From a virus: 64,000 bases of DNA. The position numbers and the translations under genes were made by a program. The notes under the pieces were generated by a model. That model ran no database searches, had not been told where the DNA came from, and saw nothing but the letters and a program-made list of their open reading frames with translations. The stretch covers positions 32,001-96,000 of the IMG/VR virus record IMGVR_UViG_3300036760_000150; one strand, written 5' to 3'. Of this stretch, positions 15,105 to 63,330 are shown one piece after another (position 1 is the first letter of the stretch; each line of letters begins with the position of its first letter).

Positions 15105-15116
15105 CGTCTATTCTCC

Positions 15117-40779: not shown

Positions 40780-40803
40780 TTAGGTTAAAAGCTTAATTTT
40801 ATT
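40780..40803 (+). promoter_or_regulatory. putative late promoter
   Basis: TTAG-N8-CTTAATTTTA, shared with 44875, 55661, 63307. Confidence 0.65.
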
Positions 40804-41816: not shown

Positions 41817-43793
41817 ATGAGCAACAAGAACGATACTTCTAAATCTGACAACATGTCACCCACCGACAAGAGATTCACCTCCATAGTCATGGAGAAGACT
41901 GACGTGTCGACTATGAAGGAAGATGTCTTATCACAGATCCTGCTCACCTTGAAGAAAACTCAGGACGAGGAAGTGGTCCGAGTTGCCTTTGAGGAAGATC
42001 CTACAAACAGAAGTAAGTACGCTGGGCTGTTCAAGAATCGTGGTAGTGGAATCCCCAACGAGATGCTTAAGAGAGTCAGAGACTCTGAGGAGCTGATCGG
42101 CGGAGTCATCATACCCACTCGTGCTAGACAGATCAGCCTGTTTGGTCATCCTCGTGCCAACAGATTTGATATAGGTACCACCATCAACCTGAAGCCTCAC
42201 GTCATGTCTCAGATGGATGTTCAGAAGGCAGAGGATTTAAAGAACAAAGAGATACCGAAGATCAGAGAGATGCTGATGAACTGTGGCATCAAGAAAGGTA
42301 TCACCGATCGTGAAAGACTCACGTTATCTGAGTGTATCTACGAGATCATAGAGGATGCATTGACGTTTGGTTACCTATCTATTGAGGTGCGACGCAACAC
42401 TGTTGATGAGTTCCACAGCTTCAGGCCCATAGACTCTGGCACAATCTACCAGTTTGCTACACCTGTAGGTAGCGAGTCTGAAGTTCAACGTATCAGAGCT
42501 GAAGCCAAAGAAGCGTTTAAGACTTTGACCGGGAAACCGTCTGAGCTTAACGTTAAGATCGACAAAGATGAGATCACTTGGGTTCAGGTGATAAACGGTC
42601 AAGCGAAGCAGGTGTTCACCGACAATGAACTGTTAGTTTACAACCTGTATCCTTCAACAGACATACGTCGTAACGGCTACGCATGCTCACCTATCGAGCG
42701 CATGTTGACCGCTGTCGTAACTCACATCAACATAACAAACCACAACAAATTGTTCTTCCTGAACGGTAGAGCTGCACGCAACGTCATGGTGTTTCAGTCT
42801 GAGAACTTAGACGTTGAAGACATCAAGAACATTCGTTCGCAGATGCAAGACCATATCAACTCTGCCAACGCCTCGTGGCGTATGCCAGTGTTTGGCGTCG
42901 GTCAGAACGACAAGATCGACGTGTTGCCACTTGATGGTGCTGGTCGAGACATGGAGTTTCAGTACCTGGCTGACCTTACCAAGCGTATGATCTTCGCTGC
43001 GTACCAGATGTCGCCTGATGAAGTTTCAGCTCTGTCGTACTTGTCGCGTGGCACAGGGTCACAGTCTCTTTCAGAGTCGAACAACGAGTATAAGCTTGAG
43101 GCTGCCAGAGATCTAGGTCTTCGTCCCATCTTGATGGCTATCGAGTCGTTCTTCAACGAACGTCTACTTCCTCAGATAAGCAAAGATTGGGCAGAGAACT
43201 TCTACATCAGCTTTGAAGGTCTCGACGCTGACAGCCCAGAGAAGGAAGCCACTCGCATCCAGCAGGACTCAGCCATCCACATGTCTATGAACGACATCAT
43301 GGACAGAGTCGAGAAGAAGAAAGTTCCACTTGGCGGCAGCTTCGTGCTCAACACGGCTTACATGACAGTGCTTGAGAAGTACTTCACCAAAGGTGAGATC
43401 TTAAGGGCGTTCGGTGGAGACAAGTTCAAAGACGCAGATGACGCCAAGAAGCACCCCGAGTGGGACTACTACATGGGCGACCCAGGTTCCCAGTGGTACA
43501 CGCAGGTGAAATACGGTCAGCAGCAGCAAACTCCTCCTGGAGGATCTGGAGGTGGACCACAGGACGGTGGACAACCAGGAGATCAGTCTGGCAGCACAGA
43601 GGATATGTCATCTATAGTTGATCAGCTTGGTCAGATGTTAAGCAAGGCCGAGAAAGATCTACCTAACGCTCGTAAGGAACTCTTGTCTAAGCACAAAGAC
43701 ATAAAGAACTCTATCTTGAAAGCTTGGGAACAAGAGTCTGACGCTATGTTCAAGCAGATCATCAACGCCATAGACGGCGGCGATGGACACTGA
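41817..43793 (+). CDS. portal protein
   Basis: D.LTFG...E, PIDSGTI, NGY..SPIE, FF.NG, DMEF...AYQMSPDE, GLRP. Confidence 0.88.
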   Translation: MSNKNDTSKSDNMSPTDKRFTSIVMEKTDVSTMKEDVLSQILLTLKKTQDEEVVRVAFEEDPTNRSKYAGLFKNRGSGIPNEMLKRVRDSEELIGGVIIPTRARQISLFGHPRANRFDIGTTINLKPHVMSQMDVQKAEDLKNKEIPKIREMLMNCGIKKGITDRERLTLSECIYEIIEDALTFGYLSIEVRRNTVDEFHSFRPIDSGTIYQFATPVGSESEVQRIRAEAKEAFKTLTGKPSELNVKIDKDEITWVQVINGQAKQVFTDNELLVYNLYPSTDIRRNGYACSPIERMLTAVVTHINITNHNKLFFLNGRAARNVMVFQSENLDVEDIKNIRSQMQDHINSANASWRMPVFGVGQNDKIDVLPLDGAGRDMEFQYLADLTKRMIFAAYQMSPDEVSALSYLSRGTGSQSLSESNNEYKLEAARDLGLRPILMAIESFFNERLLPQISKDWAENFYISFEGLDADSPEKEATRIQQDSAIHMSMNDIMDRVEKKKVPLGGSFVLNTAYMTVLEKYFTKGEILRAFGGDKFKDADDAKKHPEWDYYMGDPGSQWYTQVKYGQQQQTPPGGSGGGPQDGGQPGDQSGSTEDMSSIVDQLGQMLSKAEKDLPNARKELLSKHKDIKNSILKAWEQESDAMFKQIINAIDGGDGH

Positions 43794-44874: not shown

Positions 44875-44898
44875 TTATATCAGAACCTTAATCTTAAT
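44875..44898 (+). promoter_or_regulatory. putative late promoter
   Basis: TTAT-N8-CTTAATCTTA. Confidence 0.55.
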
Positions 44899-45841
44899 GT
44901 ATATGGCAGCCTTAAAGAAGAACTTGATAGTTGAGGGAGTACTCACAGCCCAAGTACCTGACACGGCTGGTGAAGTCCTTGACATATCTGGCGCCGACAT
45001 AAGCGACCTTAAGACTGGTCGTAGCCCCGTCAACACTGAACATATCAACCCGGACGACATCAAGAAAGACAGTGACGACAACGGGTTCCAGTCTATCGTG
45101 GGCCGCGTGATTGACGCAAAAAAGATCTTCAGCGAAGAAGACTGTGACAGCCCTGATGAACTTAGGGCTTACAAGAACCTCAAAGTGCCTTTAATCTGGG
45201 GTAAGATCGAGATATTCGACAACGACAAGTCGCACGACAACGCTCGTGCTGCAGCCTCGATCATCAGGAACTACGCCGATGCAGGTGTCAAGCAGTTGCT
45301 TGGGTACTCTGTCGAAGGCAACACATTGAGAAGAGACGGAAATTTACTTAAAGAAACGGTGATCAAGAGGATCGCCTTGACAGCCAAGCCTGCTAACAAG
45401 GCAGCTGTCGTTCAGGTTGTGAAGGACCAGCCGCAATCTACCTCTGCTTCTATTACAAAGTCAACGAGTAGCATTGGCGGCTATGAGCCCCTCTTTAAAT
45501 CTGAGAACTTCATGAGCCACATGCGCGTGGTCAAGGATGACTACGGTCTGTCAGGCGCCATCTTCAAGTTGAAGAAAGCTCTGACGGCAGGTGGTTCAAA
45601 CGTACCCCCAGGCAACCTCACGAACGGGTCGGCGTTGCAGCCAGAGTCCCAGCTAGGAAAGCTAAAGAAACTGATCGGACGACAGAAGATCAGTAGGGAC
45701 CTTCTAAGACGCCATCTACCTAAGATCTCTGAGGAAGACCTGGACAAGGTCGAAGCTGTCCTGAAGGCAGAGCGTGAGGCTGTAGACCTCAAATCTGCGC
45801 AGGATACCTACGACCAGATAACTAAAGGTTTTAAACAATAA
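44897..45841 (+). CDS. prohead protease
   Basis: D..GEV, VNTEH (His), GYSVEG (Ser), IALT.KPAN. Confidence 0.85.
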   Translation: MYMAALKKNLIVEGVLTAQVPDTAGEVLDISGADISDLKTGRSPVNTEHINPDDIKKDSDDNGFQSIVGRVIDAKKIFSEEDCDSPDELRAYKNLKVPLIWGKIEIFDNDKSHDNARAAASIIRNYADAGVKQLLGYSVEGNTLRRDGNLLKETVIKRIALTAKPANKAAVVQVVKDQPQSTSASITKSTSSIGGYEPLFKSENFMSHMRVVKDDYGLSGAIFKLKKALTAGGSNVPPGNLTNGSALQPESQLGKLKKLIGRQKISRDLLRRHLPKISEEDLDKVEAVLKAEREAVDLKSAQDTYDQITKGFKQ

Positions 45842-46461: not shown

Positions 46462-47415
46462 ATGGACCAAGACCTTAGTAAGTTAGTAGCAGAAGCGACA
46501 GAAGCACTCGACAGTCTTATCAAGTCTGAGAGAGAACGCTTCGACATCCTCCTGAAATCAGAAACGTCTGATAAGAAAGATGGCACCAAGCCGCTAGCTA
46601 AGAAAGAAGAGTCGTCCAAGGAGGAGTCTTCAAAATCCAAAGAAGAGTCATCCATGGCGAAGAAAGAGGAGTCTTCTAAGAAGGAAGAGTCTTCAAGATC
46701 CAAAGAAGAGTCTATGAAGAAAGATGACCCAGAAGGTTCGGGCTTTCAAAGCCCTGCCCCTGAGGCATCTTCAAAGCCTGAAGAGTCTAGCTCGCCTGAA
46801 GGGTCAAAGACCCCTGAGGCCTCTAGTTCTCCCGAAGCGTCTGGTGATGCTGGCGTCGATCATATCTCAGAGATGCTCTCTGGACTTGACGACGAGCAGT
46901 TGCAACACCTCTACATGTCGTTGAAGTCTGAGCTGATGTCTCGCATGAAGCCTGAAGATCAACCAGCTAAGCCCGACATGTCAAGTGCTCCGGCCCCTTC
47001 ACCTGCCGCACCATCGCCGTCGCCTGAACAACCAGGAATGGAGAAGATGTACATGGCAGAGAAGAAAGAAGTCGAGGAGAAGTTGTCGAAGTCTGAGGGT
47101 ACCCTTAAGAAAGCACAAGAAGAGAACGGTGCTCTTAAGAAGGCTCTTGAGAACGCGACTGACATGCTCGACAAGATCCTCAGCCGTCCCGTCAAGAAAG
47201 CCATCACCGACATCCGATTCGTGGAGAAGGGTGAGGAGCTTGCCAAGACAGACGACAAGATCAGCGACTCTGATCTGAAGAAGAAAGCCAACACCGTGTC
47301 TAAAGACATGGGTAAACTCAGCCAGTTATCTAAATCTGAACGTGAAACCCTTGTTGACTTCACCACCGGACGCTCAAAGGCTCGTGAAGAAGTTATCAAG
47401 ATCGTTAACAAGTAA
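46462..47415 (+). CDS. scaffold-like protein
   Basis: charged, low-complexity/coiled-coil; upstream of capsid gene; many LxK[SA] sites. Confidence 0.7.
   Translation: MDQDLSKLVAEATEALDSLIKSERERFDILLKSETSDKKDGTKPLAKKEESSKEESSKSKEESSMAKKEESSKKEESSRSKEESMKKDDPEGSGFQSPAPEASSKPEESSSPEGSKTPEASSSPEASGDAGVDHISEMLSGLDDEQLQHLYMSLKSELMSRMKPEDQPAKPDMSSAPAPSPAAPSPSPEQPGMEKMYMAEKKEVEEKLSKSEGTLKKAQEENGALKKALENATDMLDKILSRPVKKAITDIRFVEKGEELAKTDDKISDSDLKKKANTVSKDMGKLSQLSKSERETLVDFTTGRSKAREEVIKIVNK
46600..46840 (+). repeat. degenerate coding repeats (KEESS x6; PExS)
   Basis: aaagaagagtc-like units in scaffold gene. Confidence 0.7.
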
Positions 47416-47426
47416 AGGAGTGCAAA

Positions 47427-48830
47427 GTGCAAGAAGTCATTCAGAAAATCGAAGAACTTAGGAAGGCGCTGGAAGCGGGTGGGATGAACGCCGCTCCCGG
47501 AACACTGACTCAAGGGTCTGCGCTCCAACACGAAGACCTCAGTGCAGTGATGAACGTCACCACATTTGAAGACAAACACATCAAGCTGCAGAAGAAGTTC
47601 AAAGTCGTCCCCGCCAAAGGGACGATGGTCCAGTACAATCGTCAGCTTGACCGTGGTATCTTCGGCGGATCTGCCGTCATCGAGGGTGCTGTCGGAGACG
47701 AGAGCACATCGACGTATGTGCGTGAGATCGTCAACATGTGCTACTACGCTGAAGTGCGTAGGACCACAGAGCAAGCCAACCTCATCGAGTCTTTCGACGG
47801 TGTCAAAGCCGATGACAGGGTCGAGCAGGATGCAGCTCTCAAGATCGCTGGCGACGTCGAGTTCGACCTCTTCCGAGGTAAGTCGATGTTCTCCAACGGT
47901 GGGGTGTTCGACGGCCAAGGTTCTGCTATCCCTCAGAACATGCCTAACATCCTCGGTCTCGACCCTCTCATCAGACGGTCAGACATCCTTCAAACTACAC
48001 AAGACCTCATGTTCAACGAGTATGGATCTGACGGATCTATCCAGTTCAACCAAGCTGGTGTCCTGTCTCAGTCCACTATCGAAGACATGTACGCTCGCTC
48101 CAGCATGAACCTCGGTATGGCTGACTGGCTCGGACTTGATCCTTTGACCCACAGCGGGTACAACAAGATCAGTCACGCCAAAGAGCGTATCGTCCTCGCT
48201 GGATCGCCTCAACAAGCTACTGGTGCAAGCCTGAAGGAGCAGTGGGTCGCTGGTGGTGCTATCACCGTCGAGTCCAGTCGCTTTCTCTCAGCCAAGACCA
48301 GCCCTGCTCGTCCTAAGATCGGATCTCCTGCAGCCCCAACACATGCTGCCGCTGACGGGTCTCCATCGGGCACATCGTTCATCGCTGCTCAAGTCTACTA
48401 CTACCGTGTTACCTCTGTCAACGAACGTGGTGAAAGCTCTGCTTCAGCCGCTGCCTCGTTCACGGTTGCGACCTCTGGTAACAGTACCGCGCTCACGATC
48501 ACCCCTGCTGGCGGTGTCCAAGCACTGTACTTCAACGTCTACCGCTCGAATGCTGGTGAACCTGCATCGAAGGTTCGCTTCATCGGTCGCGTCGCTAACA
48601 GCGGTGCTGCTACCACGATCTTTACCGACCTCAACAACAGACTTCCAAACGGCGTCACGGGCTTCCTGCTCGATATGCGCGGTATGGAGATGCCTGAGTT
48701 GGCCAGCTACCGATCGAAAGAGCTTGCTAGAACAGACTTAAGCAATCCCAAAGTATTTTATCGCTTCACAACCCTTGCGGTAAAATTACCAAGGTTCAAC
48801 TGCCTTGTTGATAACTTGCTCCCAAGCTAA
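47427..48830 (+). CDS. major capsid protein (Herelleviridae-like, with inserted FN3/Ig-like domain)
   Basis: KALEAG..GSALQHEDL, QYNR, E.DLF.G, YYYRVTSVN..GES, FNVYR; strong codon bias. Confidence 0.9.
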   Translation: MQEVIQKIEELRKALEAGGMNAAPGTLTQGSALQHEDLSAVMNVTTFEDKHIKLQKKFKVVPAKGTMVQYNRQLDRGIFGGSAVIEGAVGDESTSTYVREIVNMCYYAEVRRTTEQANLIESFDGVKADDRVEQDAALKIAGDVEFDLFRGKSMFSNGGVFDGQGSAIPQNMPNILGLDPLIRRSDILQTTQDLMFNEYGSDGSIQFNQAGVLSQSTIEDMYARSSMNLGMADWLGLDPLTHSGYNKISHAKERIVLAGSPQQATGASLKEQWVAGGAITVESSRFLSAKTSPARPKIGSPAAPTHAAADGSPSGTSFIAAQVYYYRVTSVNERGESSASAAASFTVATSGNSTALTITPAGGVQALYFNVYRSNAGEPASKVRFIGRVANSGAATTIFTDLNNRLPNGVTGFLLDMRGMEMPELASYRSKELARTDLSNPKVFYRFTTLAVKLPRFNCLVDNLLPS

Positions 48831-54692: not shown

Positions 54693-54864
54693 GAAAGACA
54701 ACAAGGTAGACACGAAGCTAGACACGAAGCTAGACACGAAGCTAGAGTACTGCCATCACGATCCCAGCGTCAAGACCGAGGTGATCCACGAAGGCGACCC
54801 ATACATCTTCGTCTACTGCAAGAACTGCAACGAGTCGATCTACAAGTGGAGAGGGTGGGATTGA
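54661..54864 (+). CDS. small Zn-ribbon protein
   Basis: CHH...CKNC. Confidence 0.55.
   Translation: MALKKTKKSHRKDNKVDTKLDTKLDTKLEYCHHDPSVKTEVIHEGDPYIFVYCKNCNESIYKWRGWD
54707..54746 (+). repeat. 12-bp tandem repeat (TAGACACGAAGC x3.3)
   Basis: perfect in-frame units encoding DTKL. Confidence 0.9.
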
Positions 54865-54865
54865 T

Positions 54866-55111
54866 ATGTACAGAGATGGTAGACAGTACTTCTTCAAGAA
54901 CGTTCGGTTGATCAAGAGTAGGTGGATCAGCAGTTGCCTTGTCGTGGACGGTTACGAGTACAACCCGTTCTTGTTGCTTGAGATCAGTCCGAACCTGACT
55001 AAGTTCCCTAGAGGGAAGCGCCTGTGGGACAATGGCTACGTGTCGTTTGGCCTCTTTCGTCTCAAGCTCACGCTGTACGTGACCTTGACATTTCTAAGGT
55101 ATCTGAGGTAG
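54866..55111 (+). CDS. hypothetical protein
   Basis: ORF in gene string. Confidence 0.5.
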   Translation: MYRDGRQYFFKNVRLIKSRWISSCLVVDGYEYNPFLLLEISPNLTKFPRGKRLWDNGYVSFGLFRLKLTLYVTLTFLRYLR

Positions 55112-55114
55112 TTT
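55085..55114 (+). promoter_or_regulatory. sigma70-type promoter of AbrB-like gene
   Basis: TTGACA-18 nt-TAGTTT. Confidence 0.45.
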
Positions 55115-55148
55115 ACAGGTACATGTCTGTTACCATGAAGGAGTACAC

Positions 55149-55472
55149 ATGAACAACGTATTATCTATATCTCCAAGGAAGATCACGAAGAACGGGCAGA
55201 TCGTCCTGCCCAAGGCAGTGCGCGACACACTAGGCGTGAAGAACGGTGACTTCGTGTCGTTCAACATCATAGACGGCCTAGTCACCGTCACCCGAGAGCC
55301 CATCAACGAGGCTGTCCAGAGTGGTCGGTCTTTGTCTACCAAGGAGTTAGACGAGGCGTTTGACGAGGTCGAGGCGACCATCCAGAAGTCTGTGGCGATC
55401 AGCCCAGAGACCCTGACTGGTGGTCCTACAACCGCAACTGAGGTTGCGGACGACGGGTTGGCGCCGTTCTGA
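55149..55472 (+). CDS. AbrB/MazE/SpoVT-family DNA-binding protein
   Basis: KITKNGQIVLPKAVRDTLGVKNGDFVSF. Confidence 0.85.
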   Translation: MNNVLSISPRKITKNGQIVLPKAVRDTLGVKNGDFVSFNIIDGLVTVTREPINEAVQSGRSLSTKELDEAFDEVEATIQKSVAISPETLTGGPTTATEVADDGLAPF

Positions 55473-55636
55473 TGACATCAGATCATTTTAAAGTGGCACT
55501 GACCACTGCGGCGATCTTCGCCGTCTTCATTGTAGGGTATGCGTACTTCATCGGTGCCCCATTGGCACAGGCCTCGAAAGGTATGGCAGCGGCCATATGT
55601 CAATCCTGGCACCTTAACTGCTACTTTGGTCCGTGA
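55472..55636 (+). CDS. 54-aa membrane peptide (not in ORF track)
   Basis: TGATG-coupled to AbrB gene; TM segment. Confidence 0.5.
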   Translation: MTSDHFKVALTTAAIFAVFIVGYAYFIGAPLAQASKGMAAAICQSWHLNCYFGP

Positions 55637-55660
55637 CGGTTCCTGAATAAGATCAACAAG

Positions 55661-55684
55661 TTAGGGTAAAGTCTTAATCTTATT
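55661..55684 (+). promoter_or_regulatory. putative late promoter
   Basis: TTAG-N8-CTTAATCTTA. Confidence 0.7.
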
Positions 55685-55712: not shown

Positions 55713-56123
55713 ATGAGACTAGGCCTAGTCATACTCAGCCCCTTCTCAACTCTCAACAACCTGCAGCACCTCAACCAGGCCTCTGTGTCTCAGGGCGACA
55801 CTGCTGACGTGTACTTCCAGCTCGTTGACATGGACACCATATCTGAGAGATTCCAGAGAGGTATCAGGTACATGCCAGCTTCTGGTGCCACGATGCAGGT
55901 GACCATGAAATCTATCAACGATGCGAACACGGTCGCGAAGGCAGCCACGATGGCGTTCCCTTCGGACGACAGGTCTATCTGGAAGTTCAGCCTGTCTGCT
56001 GCGGAGACGCAAAAAGTGGCCGGTGTGAACCTCAGAATCGTCTTGACAGAGGGGTCCAACATCAAGTCGGCCAACGCAACCAACGTCATATCTGTGACGC
56101 CTGCGAACCAGTTTCAGTGTTAG
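55713..56123 (+). CDS. virion structural protein (Ig/BppU-like)
   Basis: GAGGAG SD; QGDT...FQL; beta-rich. Confidence 0.6.
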   Translation: MRLGLVILSPFSTLNNLQHLNQASVSQGDTADVYFQLVDMDTISERFQRGIRYMPASGATMQVTMKSINDANTVAKAATMAFPSDDRSIWKFSLSAAETQKVAGVNLRIVLTEGSNIKSANATNVISVTPANQFQC

Positions 56124-56124
56124 T

Positions 56125-56262
56125 ATGAGTTGTCTAAACTGTGGCAAAAAGTTAAGGCTACAAAATACTATTGGATATTGTCGTAAACATAGAGGCCATG
56201 CACCTAAGGTTGTTGAATATCATAAACAATATCAACGAGATAATAAAGAAATTAAAGGGTAA
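56125..56262 (+). pseudogene. truncated HNH-type homing endonuclease N-terminus
   Basis: AT-rich MSCLNCGKK...CRKH...YHKQYQRDNKE then stop; resembles N-terminus of 22217-22954. Confidence 0.5.
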
Positions 56263-56280
56263 TAAGACAGGGGCAATTTA

Positions 56281-57165
56281 ATGTCTGAATATAGTCGTAC
56301 AAAACCTATCCCAAATCGTAACTATCCATCAAAAAGTGTAGTTGGTGGTGTTGCTGGTTTTTCACGTGTAGAAGCCATGTTAACAGTAGATAGATTACGT
56401 CAAGAATTTTTGTTCGGTATACCATTAGTTTCTTTCATCACGAAGGAGACCCTTAAGGACGAAACTATCAGGAACATCTTGAATCGTGCTGCTGCTCGCG
56501 TAGAGCTTGAGTGTAAGATCGACGTCACTCCTGTGCAAAGAGAGGGTCATTTTCCATTTGATAGAGTTAAATTCCTGCAAGGATTCAACCAGATCGACCT
56601 CAGCAACGTGCCACTCAGGAGTCTTGAGGAGTTCTCAATTCGAGCAGTCAACAGTGCGAACACGCCAGACAACGTGAGTGGTGGAGGTCCTGACGGTAAA
56701 GGGACGGTTATATACACCCTGCCACTTGATTGGATTGACCTATCACAATCACATAAAGGTATCTTGCATGTGTTCCCATTGATCAGCACGTTCACCGGTA
56801 CTGGTCAGGTTGCCGCTGCAGTCATGGGGCCGTCAGCATCTCTGTTCATGAACTTGATACATCAGACATATATGCCTGCTTATTGGTATGTCCGTTGGAC
56901 GTCAGGGTTTGACGAGAATGCCGTTCCTGCAACGCTGAATGAACTTATAGGTTGTTTTGCTGCCTTAGAGATCTTGAGTTTGATCGGTCCTCTTCGTCTA
57001 TGGAACTCACAGAGTATCAACATCGACGGATCTGGACAATCTGTAGCAGGACCAGGTTCGCAACTGTTCAAACAACGTATAGATGAGTTGACCAGTCGTA
57101 TCGCTGAGCTTAAAGATCTGATCAAAGCACGCTTTAGCCAGAAGATCGTGATGGTTCATATCTAA
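56281..57165 (+). CDS. head-tail adaptor / neck protein
   Basis: FLFGIPL, P.YWYV...GF...P..L..LIG..AA, SQSINIDG. Confidence 0.7.
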   Translation: MSEYSRTKPIPNRNYPSKSVVGGVAGFSRVEAMLTVDRLRQEFLFGIPLVSFITKETLKDETIRNILNRAAARVELECKIDVTPVQREGHFPFDRVKFLQGFNQIDLSNVPLRSLEEFSIRAVNSANTPDNVSGGGPDGKGTVIYTLPLDWIDLSQSHKGILHVFPLISTFTGTGQVAAAVMGPSASLFMNLIHQTYMPAYWYVRWTSGFDENAVPATLNELIGCFAALEILSLIGPLRLWNSQSINIDGSGQSVAGPGSQLFKQRIDELTSRIAELKDLIKARFSQKIVMVHI

Positions 57166-57169
57166 AGTT

Positions 57170-60100
57170 ATGGAAGATAGTAATCGCAAAGACATCTTGA
57201 CATCAAAAGATATCAACGAATCGTTGACGTCAGATGATACCAACTTAGAGAAGTCGGTGAATACCAAGCTTGTTCATCTAGCTACTATAGCCTCACTTCT
57301 CGGTGTCCCGTACTCTTCAAACATGCAGCCACCTAAAGCTGTGGCGGCAGCTCCAGCAGTTGTCCCCAGCGCCACCCCTCATCCCGGTCTTGAGCCCATA
57401 GCGTACATGGAGTCCAGGAATGGTAGGAACCAGAGGCACAAGCTTGTGACATGGGGCCTCAACTCTGGAACCAAGGCTGTAGGCAAGTACGGCCTCATGC
57501 CACTGACTGTCCACGAGACTGCCAAGCATGACAGCACCATCGGCAGGATGTACCCTGAGTTTAAGACTCTAGACCCTATCAAGGATCACGACAAGTACGA
57601 GAAGATCTTGCTTGCCAACCCGCAGGTGCAGGACCACATCGCCAACTCACACTGGGGTAGGTTGACTCGCACCTTCGGTAAAGACAAGAACAGGGCAGTC
57701 TACGCCTGGAAGTACGGCATCACAGGTGCCAAGACTGCATCACATAGCGATGTTTCGTCTGCTCCTTACGTGAGGGAGTACAACAAGCATCACAACATGC
57801 TGAATGTTCAGACCAAGAAGAGTCTTCGCAAGTCAGAGTTTCAGCTGCCGCAGCACTTCAGTTTCATATCAGCTCAACGCGGTGGTGATCACAACCATGA
57901 CGTACATCAACGTCTGTACCAAGACCTGAGAGACTCAGGGTTCGACCCCGTTGAGGTGACGGGCCACTACGGCTACCAGGAGAGGTCTTTCCTAGTACCA
58001 CACACAGGCTCTGCTGTCGATCGCAACAAGGTCGAAGATCTAGGCAGGAAGTACAATCAGGAGAGTGTGTTACACTCGTCCGACTTGAACAACGAGCTGG
58101 TCAACCTAGAAGATCCAACGAAGAGTATGAGGGGTTCTGGCATCAGCAACGATTACAGTGATGCCATGTACACCGAGCTGCCTGGTGGTAGTAGATTTAA
58201 GTTGAACCTAAGGAAAACAGAGGTCCTTGAGAAGGCTGACGGACAACCTAACCCACAAGCTCGTCAGGTGGCAGAGGGTTACGCCAACTCAAAAGGTATC
58301 AAGCTGCGGCGTCTGACTCCGGTTAAGGTAAACCCACAGTTCGCGACGCATGTCGCTGGCGCCTACGAGAAGATGCCTCACTCTCCTAGCAGTCCAGACA
58401 CCAAACGTTCATACGACGCCTTGATCAGCGAGACGCTGGATCAGTTCCAACACATGAAGAACGCAGGCCTTAAGATATCAAAGATCAAGCCTGGCATGGA
58501 GAACCCCTACAAGTCTTCAAAAGACTTGTTCCATGACGTTCAGCACAACAACCACATGTGGTACTTTCCAACTGAGAGTGGGTTTGGATCATCTGAAACT
58601 CGTAGCGACCATCCTATGCTTGCTCCAACAGAAGAGATGCATGAGGGCAAGCCGATGCTTGCGAATGATGTGTTCAGGGTAGTTCATGATTACTTCGGAC
58701 ATGCAAAAGAAGGTCATGCCTTTGGCCCCAACGGGGAAGAGAACGCCTGGCAGACTCACGCTCAGATGTACTCGCCGGAGGCTAGACGGGCAATGACCGC
58801 CGAGACTCGTGGACAGAACAGTTGGGTTAACTTCGGGCCGCATGCTGCACACAACAGGTCAAACCCACACCAAACTGTATACGCTGATCAGAAGGCTGGG
58901 CTGTTGCCTGACTGGGCTCATGCAGTAGATCCTACACAGGCGTTTAGTAAATCAGAAGATGATGATAAAGTTCTCTACCACTACTCACAGCATCCTGAGC
59001 CGTTGAAGATCATAGACCCTGTCTTCCACGGTACTGGTTACCCTGGTGCTGAAGGCAAACGTGACGACAGAGTGGCTCGTGCGTACTACTACGACACACC
59101 GACGGGTCATGAACCTGATGTTATCTCTGGTGCTACGCATATGTACACTGTGAAGCATCCAGGCAACATACTTGACGTCGCCAGCGAAGAGGCCGAACCG
59201 TTCAAAGAGAAGGCTCGCAACCAATATGGTATCATAGACTACTCAGACCTTGAGCGTCACATGAAAGATGCTGGGTACAACGGTTACAAGAACACAGCGA
59301 GCGCCATCCCTAACGCAGTCGCTTTGTTTCATCCTCAGCAGGTTGATGAGTCGAGAGATCTACGTAAGTCGGAAGAGCTTGAGAAAGCATCTCATAACGT
59401 GCGAGAACAAAAGGCTAAGGTATTCGGCACAAAAGCTAATCCTCCTGCTGGATCGCAGATGCGTGAGAAACACATCGAACACATCAACAACTTCGCCAAG
59501 AAATTCCTTAACCTAGAGATCCGTCCTTCAGGCGGTAAGATCAACGAGGCAACAGGACAGAGACGATCTGAGAGTCCTAAGATAGGTACCGACAAACCGG
59601 ACTGGAGAAGTGGTCAACTTGAAGCTCAATGGAACCCGGAAGCTATCATGCATGAGCTTGCACACCTTATGTTGCTACCTTCAGGTGTTGGCTTAAAAGA
59701 AGGCCAAAGGCTGATGGACAAGCAGTACGGAGAGGTTCAAAGTAAATACGGATATATGCAGCAGAAAAGATCTCAGGGTGAGGTACAACCTATGGCTGCG
59801 GAGCAGATCATACGTAGACACCTAGGTCTTCCAGCCAGTCGAGTGAGCATTCCTGTTGAGTCGAAAGATGCCCCACCTAGAGTGTCAGTTGAAGCTCCAG
59901 ATGTGGTTATAGGTACACGAGTTCCACAACCCACTAAGAGTGGTGCAGTTAAATGGGTCGATCTGATCAGACAGTCCCGCCTTTTGAACACAGAGAATCG
60001 AAAGAGGTTGGAAGATATCTTTAGTGGTAACATCAAATTTCATCCAGAGTTGGGTTGGATACCGAAGAAGACATCTATATCCACACAGAAGCCCAAAGAT

Positions 60101-61771
60101 GAACTGCCTACTGGATTGGTCAACGATGATGTCGAACCTTCTAAACTTGCGTCTAGCGAGAAAGTATATACATCAGACGTCTTAGAAAAAGGCGTTAAAC
60201 AAAGGCTGTTCTACTTTAGTCCTGCAGAGGTGCCAGAAGAACATAAGCAGAAGGTGGCACAGTGGACAGATCCATTAGAGACAAATATATCTGGTGACAG
60301 AGAAGTGATACCTAGATTAGAAGGAAATGCTAGGATGAGGGCTCTGCATACTTTATCCAGCAAAACAAAGACTAGATGGAATCCTGATAAAAAAGAGAGA
60401 GAATTTTTATTACACCGAGGAGTGTCTGGAAGTGAACACAATCGTGTAATAAATAACGGACATGTAGAACATCCTGGTAAATCTTCGTGGTCTCCCAAAC
60501 ATACAACTGCCGTTAATTGGATGGATCAATATGGCGGTCTTGCTGATGAAGACCCCAGTGTACTATCTGCGTGGATACCAGAATCTAAGATACATCATGT
60601 TCCTATGCAGATTGGTGCCACAGAAAGAGTAGAGACCGTTAAGCCGGGTAATAAAAGATTTTCGCCAACAGGAAAGTTACAAGGTCCTATGGAGTGGCGC
60701 AACGAACACGAAGTGATCGTTGATCCTGGTAGTCATAAGGTGGCAACTGAAAAGGAAGTTAAGTCAACCGACAAGACCTCTGAGCCTACCGACATCAACG
60801 AGCGAATCAACCGTAAGATGACCAAGTCTGAGTATGATCCTGCCAAAGACGTCACAGCCTTCACATCTTTCTCTACAGAGCCTGGCGACATAGAGCTTGT
60901 GCGAGAGATCAACGAGATGATCGAGGCTGGTCACACCAGGCCGCTAGGTGAGAAAGGCTTGTTCACCGAGGATAGCTTCGTCGTCGGAGAGAAACCAGAT
61001 AACTCTTGGCTTATCAAGGTTGAGGTAGGAAACACGCCCGGCATTAAAGCTGTTCAGTACACCGGCCCTCAGTCTGTTAAAGAGGCCGCCTTCTACAAGG
61101 CCTCAGAACAAGTGTTCGGTCTGTCTCGCTTCGTGCCCAAGTCTGTGCTCGGTGAGGTGCAGACCAAGGACGTACCCAAACTGGCGGTGGCCATCAAGAT
61201 GCTGCCTCCTGAGTTCAAGAACGCCGCCGAGACAGAGGGTGACATCAAAGGTATGATGAAAGGTCTCCTTGAGAAGTACAAGGAGGCAGGTCTCTCTCAC
61301 ATGCTTGCGTTCATGCTCTACGTGTTGGGCGACCTCGATGCCCACGGCAACAACTTGATGACAGACGGGTACAACGTCGTGTTGATAGATCATGGCAGCT
61401 CGTTTGCCGACCTGTCTTCTGAGGACAAGTCTGACAAGAAGCAGTTCGTACCTTACATCTTGAGGCATGAGGGTTTCAAAGGTAAGTTGTCTGACAACGA
61501 CAAGCAGTCTCACATGCCGTTGATCGATAGCCCCGAGATAAGGGCTAACTTGAAAGAGTACATCATGTCTGTAGATCCTAAGAAGTTACATGACGTCGTA
61601 GTCAGCTACGGTCTAAATCCGGTACCATCAGTCACACGTCTTAAGGTCGCGCAGAAGATGCTTGAGCACTCAGACCACCCTGACGTATTAGTGAACTACG
61701 TTTGGATAAAAGGTGCACCTGCGGACCTAGTTGAAGAGCAAGAAGGAGTCGCACATGAAGTTGGAGCCTGA
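57170..61771 (+). CDS. large multidomain (polyvalent) virion protein: lysozyme-like, DUF3293-like, HDxxGH, ART-like, HExxH, ART and kinase modules
   Basis: IAYMES..GKYGLMP; FISA..GHYG..ERSF..KYNQESVL; VHDYFGH..GEENAW; LYHYS; MHELAH; LHRG..SSWS..EHEV; WLIK..KEAA..DAHGNN..IDHG. Confidence 0.75.
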   Translation: MEDSNRKDILTSKDINESLTSDDTNLEKSVNTKLVHLATIASLLGVPYSSNMQPPKAVAAAPAVVPSATPHPGLEPIAYMESRNGRNQRHKLVTWGLNSGTKAVGKYGLMPLTVHETAKHDSTIGRMYPEFKTLDPIKDHDKYEKILLANPQVQDHIANSHWGRLTRTFGKDKNRAVYAWKYGITGAKTASHSDVSSAPYVREYNKHHNMLNVQTKKSLRKSEFQLPQHFSFISAQRGGDHNHDVHQRLYQDLRDSGFDPVEVTGHYGYQERSFLVPHTGSAVDRNKVEDLGRKYNQESVLHSSDLNNELVNLEDPTKSMRGSGISNDYSDAMYTELPGGSRFKLNLRKTEVLEKADGQPNPQARQVAEGYANSKGIKLRRLTPVKVNPQFATHVAGAYEKMPHSPSSPDTKRSYDALISETLDQFQHMKNAGLKISKIKPGMENPYKSSKDLFHDVQHNNHMWYFPTESGFGSSETRSDHPMLAPTEEMHEGKPMLANDVFRVVHDYFGHAKEGHAFGPNGEENAWQTHAQMYSPEARRAMTAETRGQNSWVNFGPHAAHNRSNPHQTVYADQKAGLLPDWAHAVDPTQAFSKSEDDDKVLYHYSQHPEPLKIIDPVFHGTGYPGAEGKRDDRVARAYYYDTPTGHEPDVISGATHMYTVKHPGNILDVASEEAEPFKEKARNQYGIIDYSDLERHMKDAGYNGYKNTASAIPNAVALFHPQQVDESRDLRKSEELEKASHNVREQKAKVFGTKANPPAGSQMREKHIEHINNFAKKFLNLEIRPSGGKINEATGQRRSESPKIGTDKPDWRSGQLEAQWNPEAIMHELAHLMLLPSGVGLKEGQRLMDKQYGEVQSKYGYMQQKRSQGEVQPMAAEQIIRRHLGLPASRVSIPVESKDAPPRVSVEAPDVVIGTRVPQPTKSGAVKWVDLIRQSRLLNTENRKRLEDIFSGNIKFHPELGWIPKKTSISTQKPKDELPTGLVNDDVEPSKLASSEKVYTSDVLEKGVKQRLFYFSPAEVPEEHKQKVAQWTDPLETNISGDREVIPRLEGNARMRALHTLSSKTKTRWNPDKKEREFLLHRGVSGSEHNRVINNGHVEHPGKSSWSPKHTTAVNWMDQYGGLADEDPSVLSAWIPESKIHHVPMQIGATERVETVKPGNKRFSPTGKLQGPMEWRNEHEVIVDPGSHKVATEKEVKSTDKTSEPTDINERINRKMTKSEYDPAKDVTAFTSFSTEPGDIELVREINEMIEAGHTRPLGEKGLFTEDSFVVGEKPDNSWLIKVEVGNTPGIKAVQYTGPQSVKEAAFYKASEQVFGLSRFVPKSVLGEVQTKDVPKLAVAIKMLPPEFKNAAETEGDIKGMMKGLLEKYKEAGLSHMLAFMLYVLGDLDAHGNNLMTDGYNVVLIDHGSSFADLSSEDKSDKKQFVPYILRHEGFKGKLSDNDKQSHMPLIDSPEIRANLKEYIMSVDPKKLHDVVVSYGLNPVPSVTRLKVAQKMLEHSDHPDVLVNYVWIKGAPADLVEEQEGVAHEVGA

Positions 61772-62402
61772 GATGATATTGCACAAAAGTATCGTAGGTA
61801 TCTATAAAGACGGACCCGTATGTCATTTAGTTACTAAGGGTGGATATCATATGATGTATTCCGCACGTCCTAATTGTGCATATGAACTACTGTCTGTTGG
61901 CAGCCATCGGGCAGTCGCAAAGCATATGGCAGATATGAAATATAATGGTGAGATAAAATGGGACAACGAGAAACTCTACAAGGCAGACCGCTTGGAAGTT
62001 CTACCTGAGTCCAACCCTTCAAACCATATGGCATTGGCCGATCATCATGCGGTGTTACACAACAAGTACGTCGAGATGGGAAAGAATCCGTCTAAGCATG
62101 CAGACGAGGTCAACTCATACTACAGGGCTTTCATACCGGACCACAAAGACATGGATGACTTCCAACTGAAGCATGACATACACATGCATGCACTGGGACA
62201 TGAAGATACTGCCATCAAAAATTACCAGATGGCAGGTTTGGATAGAAAAGCTGCTTACGAACGGTTGAAGTCGCAGGTCAACCACGCTACACCTCTCAAC
62301 GCCAAAGCTCCGTTCAGTGATGATCAACTTCACAGGGCGTGGAACCATAAACACGCAGACCAGCGTGCGCCAGGCGGCATTGGGTATGATCAAACTAAGT
62401 AA
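61755..62402 (+). CDS. putative head protein with LxK[SA]-delimited C-terminal cargo
   Basis: GAAGGAG SD; LHKS and LYKA motifs. Confidence 0.6.
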   Translation: MKLEPEMILHKSIVGIYKDGPVCHLVTKGGYHMMYSARPNCAYELLSVGSHRAVAKHMADMKYNGEIKWDNEKLYKADRLEVLPESNPSNHMALADHHAVLHNKYVEMGKNPSKHADEVNSYYRAFIPDHKDMDDFQLKHDIHMHALGHEDTAIKNYQMAGLDRKAAYERLKSQVNHATPLNAKAPFSDDQLHRAWNHKHADQRAPGGIGYDQTK

Positions 62403-62410
62403 GGTAGGTT

Positions 62411-63289
62411 ATGTCAGACTCATCAGATAGAAAACCAGAAGATAGGGTAGATATACCAATACAGTACCATGATCCCTTTGAGGCCGTAAGAACTTCTCTT
62501 GACGCCGAAGGCTCTTTCATCTCAAACAACGGAGTGTTGTTCGCTCACTGGAAAGCCATGCCGTGTGTAATCGGTCAAAAAGATCTGGATGGCATAAGGA
62601 AAAGTTTTGACCATGCTTACGAGAATGCTGGATGTCCGATGAAGTGTGAGAACGGTTTTTCATACGAGTTCTCTGGCTACGTCTATGGAATCTTTGTTAG
62701 TAACTCGAAGAACTCGGCCAAGATGCCAGGTGGATTCGTGCCTAACGGCCAAGCATACGTCACCCTTAATAGGTACTACAAGAACACCGAGACATCAGCC
62801 TACTTCAGCGAGTACGACAAGCTCATACCTCACGAGTGTCCTGAAGACTTCAAGGCTGAGAATTTCCAGAAGTTCCAACATAACCCTAGCGGCGTAGACC
62901 GTCTTCAGTTCCCTGCTCACAAAGTTCAGTTCCTACACGACTCTGACGGCAAGAGGTACACCCAAGACGTCGACTTCACCGTGGTAGACGGTCAGATAAA
63001 GTGGGGAGACAACCGTCCTGGATTCGACAACCAAGGTAAGCCTAAGATCTGCTCTGTCAGGTACACGTACCAACCGTACTACTACGTGAAGTACGTGCTG
63101 CACGAGCAGAGGCTTAAGGTGCAGGTTGATCCTTACACCCAGGAAGGAAAGGTCAAGACAGGTCCTACACAGTGCCTAGTCGAGCAGGACTTCGTGTTCC
63201 TAGACAGCAGGTTCAAGGACAACCAGAAGGACAGCCAGCTCGAGTCGGGCAAAGGCGGCAACAGCGGGCCTGAGTACGGGCCTCGTTAA
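62411..63289 (+). CDS. neck / head-closure protein (putative)
   Basis: AMPC...CENGF; DF.V.DGQIKW...P...SVRY.Y.P. Confidence 0.6.
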   Translation: MSDSSDRKPEDRVDIPIQYHDPFEAVRTSLDAEGSFISNNGVLFAHWKAMPCVIGQKDLDGIRKSFDHAYENAGCPMKCENGFSYEFSGYVYGIFVSNSKNSAKMPGGFVPNGQAYVTLNRYYKNTETSAYFSEYDKLIPHECPEDFKAENFQKFQHNPSGVDRLQFPAHKVQFLHDSDGKRYTQDVDFTVVDGQIKWGDNRPGFDNQGKPKICSVRYTYQPYYYVKYVLHEQRLKVQVDPYTQEGKVKTGPTQCLVEQDFVFLDSRFKDNQKDSQLESGKGGNSGPEYGPR

Positions 63290-63306: not shown

Positions 63307-63330
63307 TTAGCTTAAAGTCTTAATTTTACT
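63307..63330 (+). promoter_or_regulatory. putative late promoter
   Basis: TTAG-N8-CTTAATTTTA followed by GAAGAATCT as at 55685. Confidence 0.7.

Follow-up and report, generated by a model that had tools for sequence, protein, structure and literature searches.

The window analysed here, a stretch of 64,000 nt from the IMG/VR record IMGVR_UViG_3300036760_000150, comes from a phage of the Mx1-like myovirus clade and carries, between the head genes and the tail genes, a large gene for a polyvalent effector protein (P0001; Table 1). The open reading frame is real and encodes 1533 aa as first annotated, and its start M-E-D-S-N matches the M-A-D-S-N start of the homologue P0004. A promoter-like motif precedes the block containing the gene, which has it in common with the blocks of portal and protease; this motif has four exact matches in the window (40780, 44875, 55661 and 63307) and one more with a mismatch, against 0.08 matches expected at that setting.

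Table 1. Features of the effector gene and of the motif-bearing head genes (↓, putative scissile bond)
Feature	Residues	Coordinates	Strand	Basis or remark
Portal protein		41817..43793	+	L-S-K-A-E near C-terminus, residue 608
Prohead protease (presumed)		44897..45841	+	phrog_1028, E 4.2e-8; 32% identical to Mx1 'putative prohead protease'
Scaffold-like protein, acidic, Ser-rich		46462..47415	+	4 strict motifs
Major capsid protein (MCP)		47427..48830	+	phrog_752, E 7e-44; 53% identical to Mx1 MCP
Promoter-like motif TTA-N9-CTTAATYTTA		55661..55682	+	ahead of block 55713-63289 containing the P0001 gene
Polyvalent effector protein gene (P0001)	1-1533	57170..61771	+	ORF; 541 homologues, architecture variable
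Putative N-terminal propeptide	1-28	57170..57253	+	ends L-E-K↓S; 4-mer only
Module 1, SLT-like lytic transglycosylase	29-221	57254..57832	+	ends L-R-K↓S-E
Module 2, SAM-lyase/DUF3293-like	222-349	57833..58216	+	ends L-R-K↓T-E
Hexapeptide T-E-V-L-E-K	350-355	58217..58234	+	between half-sites LRK↓TE and LEK↓A
Module 3, domain of unknown function, widespread	356-594	58235..58951	+	ends F-S-K↓S-E
Module 4, L-x-H-Y-S domain	595-733	58952..59368	+	ends L-R-K↓S-E
Hexapeptide S-E-E-L-E-K	734-739	59369..59386	+	between two half-sites
Module 5, HExxH zincin-like, folded core 744-968	740-1007	59387..60190	+	HExxH; pLDDT
Module 6, R-S-ExE ADP-ribosyltransferase-like	1008-1219	60191..60826	+	ends M-T-K↓S-E
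Module 7, PI3/PI4-kinase-like (atypical kinase) domain	1220-1533	60827..61768	+	fold and motifs

Seven modules and their linkers

P0001 consists of seven independently folding modules joined by flexible Phi-x-K-[S/T]-E linkers, often with Phi-x-K-[G/A/S] 5-7 residues further on. The first-pass annotation had counted about seven modules, and most of its assignments stand. Module 1, described there as a TM plus a lysozyme-like domain, has the invariant motifs E-S, G-L-M-P and A-W-x-x-G of an SLT-like transglycosylase (alignment A10) and SLT clusters as language-model neighbours (0.94-0.95) with no profile match in Pfam or PDB; the putative TM is a short hydrophobic stretch (residues ~34-47). Module 2, earlier called DUF3293-like, holds as a SAM-lyase/DUF3293-like module. 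It scored below the Pfam cut-offs for both S-AdoMet_lyase (25.5 bits against 28) and DUF3293 (23.7 bits against 25), a module of P0005 with 55% identity to it exceeded the cut-off (34.1 bits), and one chain of the MAT-SAMH complex 7ock gave a weak fold match (Z 5.1). Module 3 (H-D-Y-F-G-H, G-E-E-N and R-G-Q-N-S-W-V-N-F-G-P; pLDDT > 90) matches phrog_3170 (E 3.9e-18) and no Pfam family, and occurs at no fewer than 592 IMG/VR loci, also as a free-standing protein of 267-285 aa.

The ART-like reading of module 4 receives middling fold support. Its invariant residues are H, Y, S, Y and E, no Pfam match was found, and the modelled structure probably represents an ART-superfamily fold, with matches, each of them confined to model residues 393-559, to MbcT (Z 7.0), NatT, AcrIF11, ParT, PARPs and homologues of diphtheria toxin. 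The zincin-like character of module 5 is borne out by an HExxH motif kept in 88 of 89 family domains, and this module is likewise found free-standing (229-238 aa). In module 6, the R of L-L-H-R-G and the W of S-W-T/S are invariant and E-x-E-V-I-V is present in all rows covering it, which agrees with the proposed R-S-E ADP-ribosyltransferase; the neighbours ADPrib_exo_Tox and Mod_ADP_RT (0.86-0.89) are leads only. The HipA/PI3K-like kinase assignment also holds for module 7, whose fold matches 4pla_A (Z 19.1, 254 aa aligned, rmsd 3.2) as well as CtkA and HipT/HipA (Z 10-12.5), with the motifs D-x-H-x-x-N and I-D-H-G and a Pfam PI3_PI4_kinase score of 13.4 bits, under the cut-off.

As predicted earlier, the junction motifs lie in inter-domain segments of low or lower confidence, outside the confident cores, in two AlphaFold2 models of P0001. 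The pLDDT falls below 50 at residues 207-231, 344-355, 593-598 and 969-1021 and to 50-64 around 1195-1224, against > 90 in the core of module 5; residues 731-740 have a pLDDT of 41-55 in one model and form a moderately confident helix (70-76) in the other. When 120 homologues were aligned by BLAST, their HSPs tended to end at 181-220, 341-380, 581-620, 721-740, 961-1020 and 1181-1240. The module swaps anticipated among orthologues were recovered as exchange, loss and reordering exactly at the motifs, and homologues retain the motif at each junction regardless of the adjoining module: P0002 passes from module 2 to module 4 via L-Y-K-S-E, P0003 from module 4 to module 6 via L-Q-K-T-E-E-L-A-K-G, and P0005 has its modules in a different order. 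Homologues of P0001 also carry NUDIX, GNAT, mCpol and ART-PolyVal domains. The codons at the motif sites vary, and selection therefore acts on the peptide and not on a DNA recombination site.

The linker motif in head genes of the Mx1-like clade

All seven motif coordinates reported earlier proved exact (L26 = 57245, L219 = 57824, L347 = 58208, F592 = 58943, L731 = 59360, L1005 = 60182 and M1217 = 60818). The strict motif Phi-x-K-[ST]-E, counted as the 5-mer [LIMFV]xK[ST]E, occurs five times in P0001 where composition predicts 0.27 (p 1e-5), a number reached by 0 of 300 shuffled versions. The bare 4-mer Phi-x-K-[STAG] alone is not enriched in P0001 (12 observed, 8.8 expected, p 0.18), and its matches at 1308, 1322 and 1362 fall inside the high-confidence modelled kinase domain. 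Among the boundary motifs listed at first, the strict 5-mers are enriched but the 4-mers (LEKS 26, LEKA 353 and 737, LEKG 1005) are not significant by themselves, and those at 353, 737 and 1005 become meaningful only where each is read as the second half of a bipartite linker. Throughout the family, Phi-x-K-[GAS] follows at +5 to +7 after 28% of 339 strict sites, compared with ~2% at random positions. The long linker of module 5 holds a half-site missed in the first-pass annotation, L-A-S↓S-E (993-997), ahead of L-E-K↓G (1005-1008), and close homologues have KLAASE at this position. The cleavage consensus of assemblin is (V/L)-x-A↓S, which both L-A-S↓S-E and K-L-A-A↓S-E fit. Where P0001 has its N-terminal site, P0002 and P0003 have an internal junction that bears the complete motif (F-H-K-S-E-V-L-E-K-G), and PhixKSE occurs among the first 25 residues of many homologues.

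Across the genome (146.7 kb), 10 of the 15 strict motifs are located in P0001, the scaffold-like protein and the prohead protease, that is, 10 in 2164 aa versus 5 in 44,501 aa elsewhere (Fisher 1e-10), and the remaining proteome is at background (6.0 expected). The scaffold-like protein, encoded immediately upstream of the MCP here and in all relatives, has L-I-K-S-E at 19, L-L-K-S-E at 30 and L-S-K-S-E at 208 and 289, against 0.24 strict motifs expected. The protease carries sites of its own (L-F-K-S-E at 199, V-L-K-A-E at 288), and its residues 225-250 are a copy of the MCP N-terminus, where residues 11-14 read L-R-K↓A. Its putative identity as a protease draws on the weak PHROG match, synteny and conserved His/Ser residues (H49, H113 and S138 are invariant), with no sequence match in Pfam or PDB and no membership of Pfam S78/S77 found.

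The same distribution holds clade-wide, where the motif is restricted to scaffold, protease and cargo-like proteins. In 19 loci or genomes, the strict motif was counted 22 times in scaffolds (1.3 expected), 73 times in the polyvalent family (8.7) and 7 times in proteases (0.9), whereas core virion proteins such as MCP, portal and terminase were at background (2 versus 2.0). The MCP-adjoining scaffolds each hold 4-8 Phi-x-K-small-[ED] sites. Phi-x-K↓A/T is found near residues 10-16 of all clade MCPs in a segment copied in the proteases, with Phi-x-K-[AT]-[LI]-E-[AV]-G conserved in seven relatives, and in the Mx1 portal the motif stands at residues 45 (L-A-K-S-E) and 637 (I-S-K-S-E). Further, the Mx1 protease is a 1239-aa fusion with modules homologous to the P0001 family (E 1e-68 and 1e-23), the proteases of L022, L031 and G005 are likewise fused to such modules, the protease being at the N-terminus of the fused forms, and in G005 a family member of 2068 aa is encoded between the protease and the scaffold. 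A lineage with another protease specificity and matching linkers was not found, one motif being common to the whole clade, and no motif recurs in the giant polyvalent proteins that carry module 3 in other phage lineages. The motif, first called head-processing-like, has a stronger link to head processing than was visible at first: here and clade-wide its copies gather in the scaffold-like protein and the protease, and it recurs at the portal C-terminus and, as a 4-mer, at the MCP N-terminus. The protease fusions and the promoter-like motif ahead of the gene's block add to this link.

Proposed packaging and processing, and alternative readings

Since its linkers carry the motif that fills the scaffold and the head protease, P0001 is probably packed in the capsid, cut and injected. 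We put the probability at roughly 0.6 that it is a polyvalent effector polyprotein which is packaged in the capsid and which the prohead protease, of assemblin/HK97 type, cuts, probably at Phi-x-K↓S/A/G. The course of events we infer is that P0001 would be made late, along with the head genes, and incorporated into the prohead, where the presumed processing enzyme, the serine protease encoded at 44897, would cut it at the motif linkers; this enzyme would also take the scaffold apart, trim the MCP at its N-terminus and the portal at its tail, and cleave itself. The scissile bond most likely lies between K and the small residue, a cut after E being the alternative. The released enzymes would remain in the head until ejected with the DNA, and might then breach the cell wall and modify targets in the host or its defences.

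P0001 could instead be packaged, and perhaps injected, uncut, the peptide serving as a docking or capsid-targeting motif, like the cargo-loading peptides of encapsulins, or simply as a flexible linker that happens to be favoured; its presence in scaffold, protease and cargo would then stem from their common need to attach to the inner face of the capsid or to the scaffold core. The motif-sharing proteins would all reside inside the prohead, the site at 731-740 is partly helical in one model, and transfer without cutting is known for the N4 virion RNAP and for some polyvalent proteins of plasmids (PMC5512222). However, assemblin-type cleavage sites are marked by a small residue such as the one after K and by the form L-A-A↓S-E, with which the motif interchanges. 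Its density is highest (4-8 copies) in the scaffolds, which are classic substrates of the protease and have to exit the head, it also occurs at the usual trimming places in MCP and portal, and bipartite sites six residues apart suit excision better than docking. We rate this reading as unlikely.

We see still less chance that the protein's own HExxH module, acting in cis or in trans and either within the head or once injected, processes the polyprotein, with the prohead protease uninvolved. Such processing is the published model for polyvalent proteins generally (PMC5512222) and the HExxH is nearly always kept, but the presence of the motif does not track a protein's own zincin module: 29 of 45 homologues with at least three motifs have none (including P0003, P0015 with 8 sites and P0051 with 7), 32 zincin-bearing proteins are without the motif, and the scaffolds and proteases it fills have no reason to be zincin substrates. 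A zincin encoded elsewhere might act in trans. Equally slight are the prospects of P0001 being a multi-enzyme protein made late for the cytoplasm, or else a lysin associated with the tail, the motif reflecting common ancestry or a compositional habit of the gene block. SLT domains are also typical of tail-tip or tape-measure lysins and the gene's position between head and tail genes would suit this, yet the enrichment remains 8- to 17-fold after correction for composition, with none in core virion proteins or the remaining genome, several relatives have family modules fused to their prohead protease, and the BFVD models most similar to that of residues 725-1533 include proteins named as portal and head-morphogenesis proteins, the matching part not being localised.

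Comparison with known systems

MARTX toxins of Vibrio are effector arrays freed by an internal cysteine protease domain. They work alike in that effector modules, joined by unstructured linkers with a simple protease motif, are exchanged between strains and released separately, but they are bacterial secreted toxins whose protease acts in cis after its activation inside the target cell, whereas P0001 would be cut before delivery by a separate virion-assembly protease. Herpesvirus assemblin and HK97-family prohead proteases are self-cleaving procapsid Ser/His proteases with a hydrophobic-x-A↓S site, and the protease is fused to scaffold or cargo, as in the pUL26 precursor, an arrangement that the Mx1 fusion resembles; in the P0001 clade, on the other hand, Lys is usual before the putative cut. 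T4 Alt and the internal proteins IPI-III carry a capsid-targeting sequence and are cut by gp21 at (L/I)-x-E. As proposed for P0001, they are packed in the head and injected, and they modify the host (Alt is an R-S-E ART); the prohead protease removes their N-terminal propeptide at a motif that also serves to dismantle the scaffold core. However, T4 cargo is single-function and loses only a short N-terminal peptide, while P0001 would release up to seven enzymes, and the motif and likely scissile bond differ.

The ejection and inner-body proteins of phiKZ, 201phi2-1 and SPN3US are cut by gp175/gp245 at A/S/G-x-E, and 13 of 14 reported cleavages in SPN3US remove N-terminal propeptides that are then degraded (PMC10052503, PMC5694885). 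In these phages, too, many head-internal ejection proteins are prohead protease substrates with motif logos common to the substrates, but these unrelated jumbo phages have a T4-gp21-type specificity after Glu, and their cuts do not part enzymatic modules. The polyvalent proteins of phages and conjugative elements (Iyer, Burroughs, Anand, de Souza, Aravind 2017; PMC5512222) combine, like P0001, many effector-type domains in one polypeptide (ART, zincin peptidase, lytic transglycosylase), with fast architecture shuffling and predicted delivery with the DNA. Iyer et al. proposed processing by in-cis zincin peptidases, described no linker motif ('linker' occurs 0 times) and reported assemblin-like peptidases only at C-termini (PMC5512222), whereas the P0001 family has a defined, zincin-independent inter-module motif that it shares with scaffold and protease, and the protease of its fused relatives is N-terminal. 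In kind, P0001 is kin to the polyvalent proteins and to processed cargo of the T4 Alt or phiKZ type.

Modular anatomy of P0001

P0001, the 1533-aa seven-module protein, is a polyvalent protein sensu Iyer et al. 2017 (PMC5512222). In a phage context it unites seven modules, delimited by HSP breakpoints and AlphaFold2, where two or more effector-type domains per polypeptide define the class, and its architecture varies among 541 homologues with NUDIX, GNAT, mCpol, ParB, ART-PolyVal, Zeta and other domains. BLAST aligned 120 homologues to P0001 in 233 HSPs, and the HSP ends group at residues 181-220, 341-380, 581-620, 721-740, 961-1020 and 1181-1240, coinciding with every motif of P0001. A full-library HMMER search with residues 725-1533 matched modules 5, 6 and 7 each separately and also returned small free-standing proteins for modules 5 and 7. 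Two AlphaFold2 models, of residues 200-760 (model A, mean pLDDT 80) and 725-1533 (model B, mean pLDDT 83), gave confident cores at 232-300, 359-591, 599-734, 744-968, 1042-1202 and 1224-1533, while pLDDT fell below 50 at 207-231, 344-355, 593-598 and 969-1021 and to 50-64 around 1195-1224. By these three lines of evidence the motifs of P0001 stand at domain boundaries, as the first-pass annotation had proposed. HSP ends and pLDDT dips bear this out, and the proposal is least clear at site 731-740, where one model gives pLDDT 41-55 and the other a helix at 70-76. The module swaps among orthologues that the same annotation anticipated were also found: the homologue P0005 carries four modules of P0001 in changed order, and HSPs end at the motifs. 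The MAFFT fragment alignments A4 and A6, in which module 1/2 rows were misplaced onto module 3, were left out and A5 was used. A conserved DNA recombination site as the nature of the linker is excluded because the codons differ from site to site.

The individual modules could be characterized to different depths. In module 1 the Glu-Ser, G-L-M-x and A-x-x-x-G motifs of SLT lytic transglycosylases are invariant (alignment A10), and its language-model neighbours in the atlas are SLT clusters (0.94-0.95); no profile match was found in Pfam or PDB. Module 2 scored 25.5 for S-AdoMet lyase (Pfam cut-off 28) and 23.7 for DUF3293 (cut-off 25), and its counterpart in P0005 (55% identical) reached 34.1 for S-AdoMet lyase, so that, judged by sequence, we class it as SAM-lyase/DUF3293-like. 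Module 3 (58235-58951; phrog_3170) is found very widely among viruses, at no fewer than 592 loci in IMG/VR, and is among the commonest modules of such proteins. This domain also occurs free-standing in proteins of ~270-285 aa and carries the signature H-D-Y-F-G-H ... G-E-E-N ... R-G-Q-N-S-W-V-N-F-G-P. Public annotations of it as lysin, RelA/SpoT or crystallin have no visible basis.

Module 4, marked by L-x-H-Y-S, was matched over model residues 393-559 by at least 13 chains with an ART fold (Z 4.7-7.0), including MbcT (Z 7.0), RES toxins, AcrIF11, ParT, diphtheria-toxin homologues and PARPs; these matches are middling and consistent (Foldseek E 0.1-1.2), and His, Tyr and Glu are invariant. Its assignment to Pfam ART-PolyVal was rejected, given that the homologue P0086 has ART-PolyVal at 490-622 and a module-4-like part at 100-221. 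One domain of a cyanophage A4 pre-ejectosome protein (PDB 9k3a chain B 1420-1645) is similar to module 4, with Z 6.7 over 131 aligned residues; the match covers model residues 397-553, i.e. P0001 residues 596-752. This likeness to a predicted structure hints that the ART-like fold might be a recurrent part of ejected proteins.

In module 5, which was modelled with high confidence, HExxH is present in 88 of 89 family domains. Module 6 shows the R-S-E order (Arg, Ser-x-Ser/Thr, Glu-x-Glu): R75 and W99 (in S-W-T/S) are invariant in the 11 sequences of alignment A7, and E-x-E-V-I-V occurs in all rows that span it. Its atlas neighbours, which serve as leads only, are ADPrib_exo_Tox and Mod_ADP_RT (Mod/Alt-type; 0.86-0.89). 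In the fold searches the kinase took up most of the matches to model B, and modules 2 and 4 most of those to model A, with little probing of modules 3, 5 and 6; within this scope no fold match was listed for module 3, which has no Pfam family either, module 5 gave no fold or profile match, and module 6 gave no profile match in Pfam or PDB. PDB-sequence profile searches with modules 1, 4, 5 and 6 and with the protease sequence returned nothing meaningful. The model of module 7 aligned with 4pla_A over 254 aa (Z 19.1, rmsd 3.2; Foldseek E 2e-5), and the catalytic motifs D-A-H-G-N-N (D-x-H-x-x-N) and I-D-H-G (I-D-x-G) are present in its sequence. Its Pfam PI3_PI4_kinase score of 13.4 bits lies below the gathering score of 27.1 (homologues P0061, 26.7; P0046, 24.0). 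Module 7 is thus, by its modelled structure, a relative of the PI4K-II-like kinase fold and no scored Pfam family member.

A linker motif common to P0001 and head proteins

The seven motif coordinates that the first-pass annotation gave for P0001 were all correct on recheck. P0001 contains five copies of the strict 5-mer [LIMFV]-x-K-[ST]-E (0.27 expected, p 1e-5). Genome-wide there are 15 copies (189 ORFs, 45.9 thousand residues), ten of them in P0001, the scaffold-like protein and the protease, a 41-fold enrichment over other ORFs (Fisher 1e-10), and all other proteins together stay at the background level (5 observed, 6.0 expected). The 4-mer Phi-x-K-[STAG], on the other hand, is common (12 in P0001 vs 8.8 expected), and taken singly L-E-K-S at 26 and L-E-K-G at 1005 accordingly carry no weight as evidence; three further matches lie inside the predicted kinase stretch modelled with high confidence. 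In the family (253 proteins, 339 strict sites), Phi-x-K-[GAS] comes at +5 to +7 after 28% of the strict sites, vs ~2% of random positions, and the 4-mers at 353, 737 and 1005 read, at the sequence level, as second halves of a bipartite linker. The first half-site at the module 5/6 junction, L-A-S-S-E at 993-997, was absent from the first-pass annotation. Homologues have K-L-A-A-S-E at this junction, and P0002 and P0003 show L-A-S-S-E or L-A-S-N-E in place of the M-T-K-S-E that P0001 has at 1217. Taken together, these variants give the general form Phi-x-[K/A/S]-[S/T/G/A/N]-[E/D].

Like processed head cargo of the T4 Alt/IP type, P0001 has this motif in common with the scaffold, the protease and the MCP that its phage encodes. 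The scaffold-like protein contains L-I-K-S-E, L-L-K-S-E and L-S-K-S-E (twice), the protease L-F-K-S-E and V-L-K-A-E, and the first 13 residues of the MCP end in L-R-K and are followed by A-L-E-A-G-G. Head proteins of Myxococcus phage Mx1 (OR576727.2), the nearest cultured relative (MCP 53% identical, protease 32%), likewise carry the motif in scaffold, protease, portal tail and MCP start. In Mx1, predicted cut sites of the Phi-x-K-small type lie in WNM70333.1, WNM70334.1, the protease fusion (WNM70322.1), the scaffold-like protein (WNM70326.1) and the MCP (WNM70327.1, predicted mature start A-M-E-A-G-N). At the end of a putative N-terminal targeting propeptide, P0001 has only the 4-mer L-E-K-S (26-29), where homologues have a full motif within the first 25 residues. 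IMG/VR loci rich in the motif are all relatives (MCPs 49-60% identical), and in each a scaffold-like gene with 4-8 sites adjoins the MCP gene, whose product starts with Phi-x-K-[AT]-[LI]-E-[AV]-G. Corrected for composition, 19 loci or genomes yielded 22 sites vs 1.3 expected in scaffolds, 73 vs 8.7 in polyvalent-family proteins, 7 vs 0.9 in proteases and 2 vs 2.0 in MCP, portal, terminase and other core proteins. The anatomy of P0001 and the distribution of its motif are hereby established.

Giant module-3 proteins of other lineages have no recurrent short motif, which marks the P0001 linker motif as a feature of the phage lineage rather than of the domains. In place of the Phi-x-K-S-E of the Mx1-like clade, a different lineage that includes the 53-kb contigs L003 and L007 has repeats of [YFM]-[AS]-[EDK]-G-G, frequently as K-[YF]-A-E-G-G-E-V, in two to three adjacent large internal-virion-like proteins. 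In L010 and G001, polyvalent genes have no strict motif, and scaffold and portal use the general Phi-x-K-small-[ED]. Co-variation of another linker with matching head genes is not shown by these cases: the flanks of L003 and L007 stop short of the head genes, and L010 and G001 use the same general motif. Several relatives also encode large proteins with repeated N-L-P-K-S-E, up to four or more each (L020 14793-16520; L021 3712-6747; L036 12381-17494; G001 54070-55653); these may be additional cargo or scaffold-like.

Protease and genome setting

The putative prohead protease matches phrog_1028 (E 4.2e-8) and phrog_38466 (E 2.6e-4), with no Pfam match at E up to 10 and no PDB sequence match. 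H49, H113 and S138 are invariant in four relatives, and the gene lies between those for the portal/minor head protein and scaffold/MCP. Residues 225-250 (45569-45646) copy MCP residues 9-37 (47451-47537; 63% identical over 30 residues), including a putative K-A site, and the segment is conserved in the proteases of Mx1, L008, L022 and L031. Its role may be to bring the protease into the shell during assembly. In several relatives the protease is fused N-terminally to residues homologous to polyvalent modules. In Mx1 the fusion has 1239 aa, its extension is homologous to modules of the P0001 family (E 1e-68 to P0020), and the end of the Mx1 protease matches C-terminal regions of P0013 and P0025, both with PI3_PI4_kinase matches. 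Through these fusions, modules of the family are physically linked to the procapsid interior in such relatives.

The window spans positions 32001-96000 of G000, an IMG/VR virus record of 146,673 bp. In a block of late structural genes, the P0001 gene is preceded by a gene for a 294-aa virion-type protein, the same order as for the Mx1 'NUDIX hydrolase' (1479 aa) and 'kinase' (619 aa). The promoter-like sequence TTA-N9-CTTAATYTTA, with four exact matches in the window vs ~0.08 expected at the search setting used, stands ahead of the portal block, the protease, the P0001 block (55661) and the next block. As the copy at 44875 abuts the annotated ATG, the protease may start at the second or third Met. 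No near-identical DNA or close relatives were found in the phage collection or in IMG/VR queried with P0001 alone, and relatives were found only via an alignment of module 3. Outside the window, a 1938-aa protein (L088 1837-7653; genome 97536-103352) lacks a PHROG match and bears a single I-K-K-S-E close to the C-terminus; L089 and L090 encode a 1939-1943-aa protein at the equivalent place.

Coordinates of genes and promoter-like sites in the window, of features in related and other phages, and of the products predicted from P0001
Feature	Coordinates	Strand	Remark
Large terminase	38852-40765		head-gene block of the window
Portal	41817-43793		head-gene block; tail of protein with L-S-K-A-E
Prohead protease	44897-45841		between portal and 151-aa protein gene
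151-aa protein			head-gene block, between protease and scaffold-like gene
Scaffold-like protein	46462-47415		head-gene block; acidic and Ser-rich
Major capsid protein (MCP)	47427-48830		head-gene block
P0001 gene	57170-61771	+	1533 aa
Promoter-like TTA-N9-CTTAATYTTA	40780-40801, 44875-44896, 55661-55682, 63307-63328	+	4 exact, 1 more mismatched
Fused protease, L006 (Mx1, OR576727.2)	13002-16721		N-terminal fusion to 250-950 residues like polyvalent modules
Fused protease, L022	3198-4928		as L006
Fused protease, L031	4260-6149		as L006
Fused protease, G005	123467-125170		as L006
Polyvalent-family gene, G005	125771-131974		2068 aa; between protease and scaffold
[YFM]-[AS]-[EDK]-G-G repeat proteins	L003 3537-14800; L007 10442-20405; L068 3307-14473		also L063, L071, L015
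Predicted propeptide	residues 1-28
Predicted module 1 product	residues 29-221
Predicted module 2 product	residues 222-349
Predicted module 3 product	residues 356-594
Predicted module 4 product	residues 595-733
Predicted module 5 product	residues 740-995 or 740-1007
Predicted module 6 product	residues 1008-1219
Predicted module 7 product	residues 1220-1533
Predicted hexapeptides	residues 350-355, 734-739

Proposed processing and known systems

We infer that P0001 would be made late, incorporated into the prohead, cut at its linkers by the assemblin/HK97-type protease and ejected as separate enzymes. The scissile bond would most simply lie between K (or A/S) and the small residue, a cut placed there because the two half-sites share no other feature. 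Such a bond would also match the assemblin consensus (V/L)-x-A↓S (arrow, cut). For cleavage of P0001 at its linkers by the prohead protease we estimate a probability of about 0.6. The published proposal for polyvalent proteins is self-processing by zincin peptidases (PMC5512222), and P0001 has an HExxH module of its own that might act in this way. Motif and zincin, however, are often found apart, 29 of 45 motif-rich homologues having no zincin and 32 zincin-bearing proteins having no motif, which makes self-processing of P0001 improbable. Less probably than a cleavage site, the motif could be a docking peptide.

Extending cleavage by the prohead protease to the whole ~150-kb Mx1-like myovirus clade, we consider it possible, at slightly less than even odds, that these phages follow a true polyprotein strategy for injected effectors, in which the flanking linker Phi-x-K↓S-E(-x-Phi-x-K↓G/A) makes any enzyme domain cargo. 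With cargo status given by the linker alone, modules could therefore move between polyvalent genes, between genes and onto the protease. Head maturation would free a lineage-specific enzyme cocktail, and the linker motif would give both the specificity of an uncharacterised assemblin-type protease and a readable capsid cargo set.

Polyvalent proteins are widespread and experimentally little studied, and the deployment of their many domains is a standing question. For one large phage clade, a head-maturation protease acting on a sequence-readable linker offers a concrete, testable alternative to the zincin idea. If true, the substrate specificity of a new prohead-protease group would be obtained, capsid cargo would become predictable from sequence in hundreds of uncultured phages, and rapid anti-defence module shuffling at fixed junctions would be explained. 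It would also suggest a natural design rule for putting foreign proteins into phage heads.

Head-packaged, protease-trimmed and injected proteins are known from T4 (Alt, IPs), phiKZ and SPN3US. Of the 14 cuts mapped in SPN3US, 13 take off an N-terminal propeptide (PMC10052503). In the literature we found no report of a prohead protease freeing several enzymes from a single phage protein, no description of an inter-module motif common to scaffold and effector protein, and no virion proteomics of the Mx1-like clade. In function, the design of P0001 resembles MARTX effector arrays and viral polyproteins.
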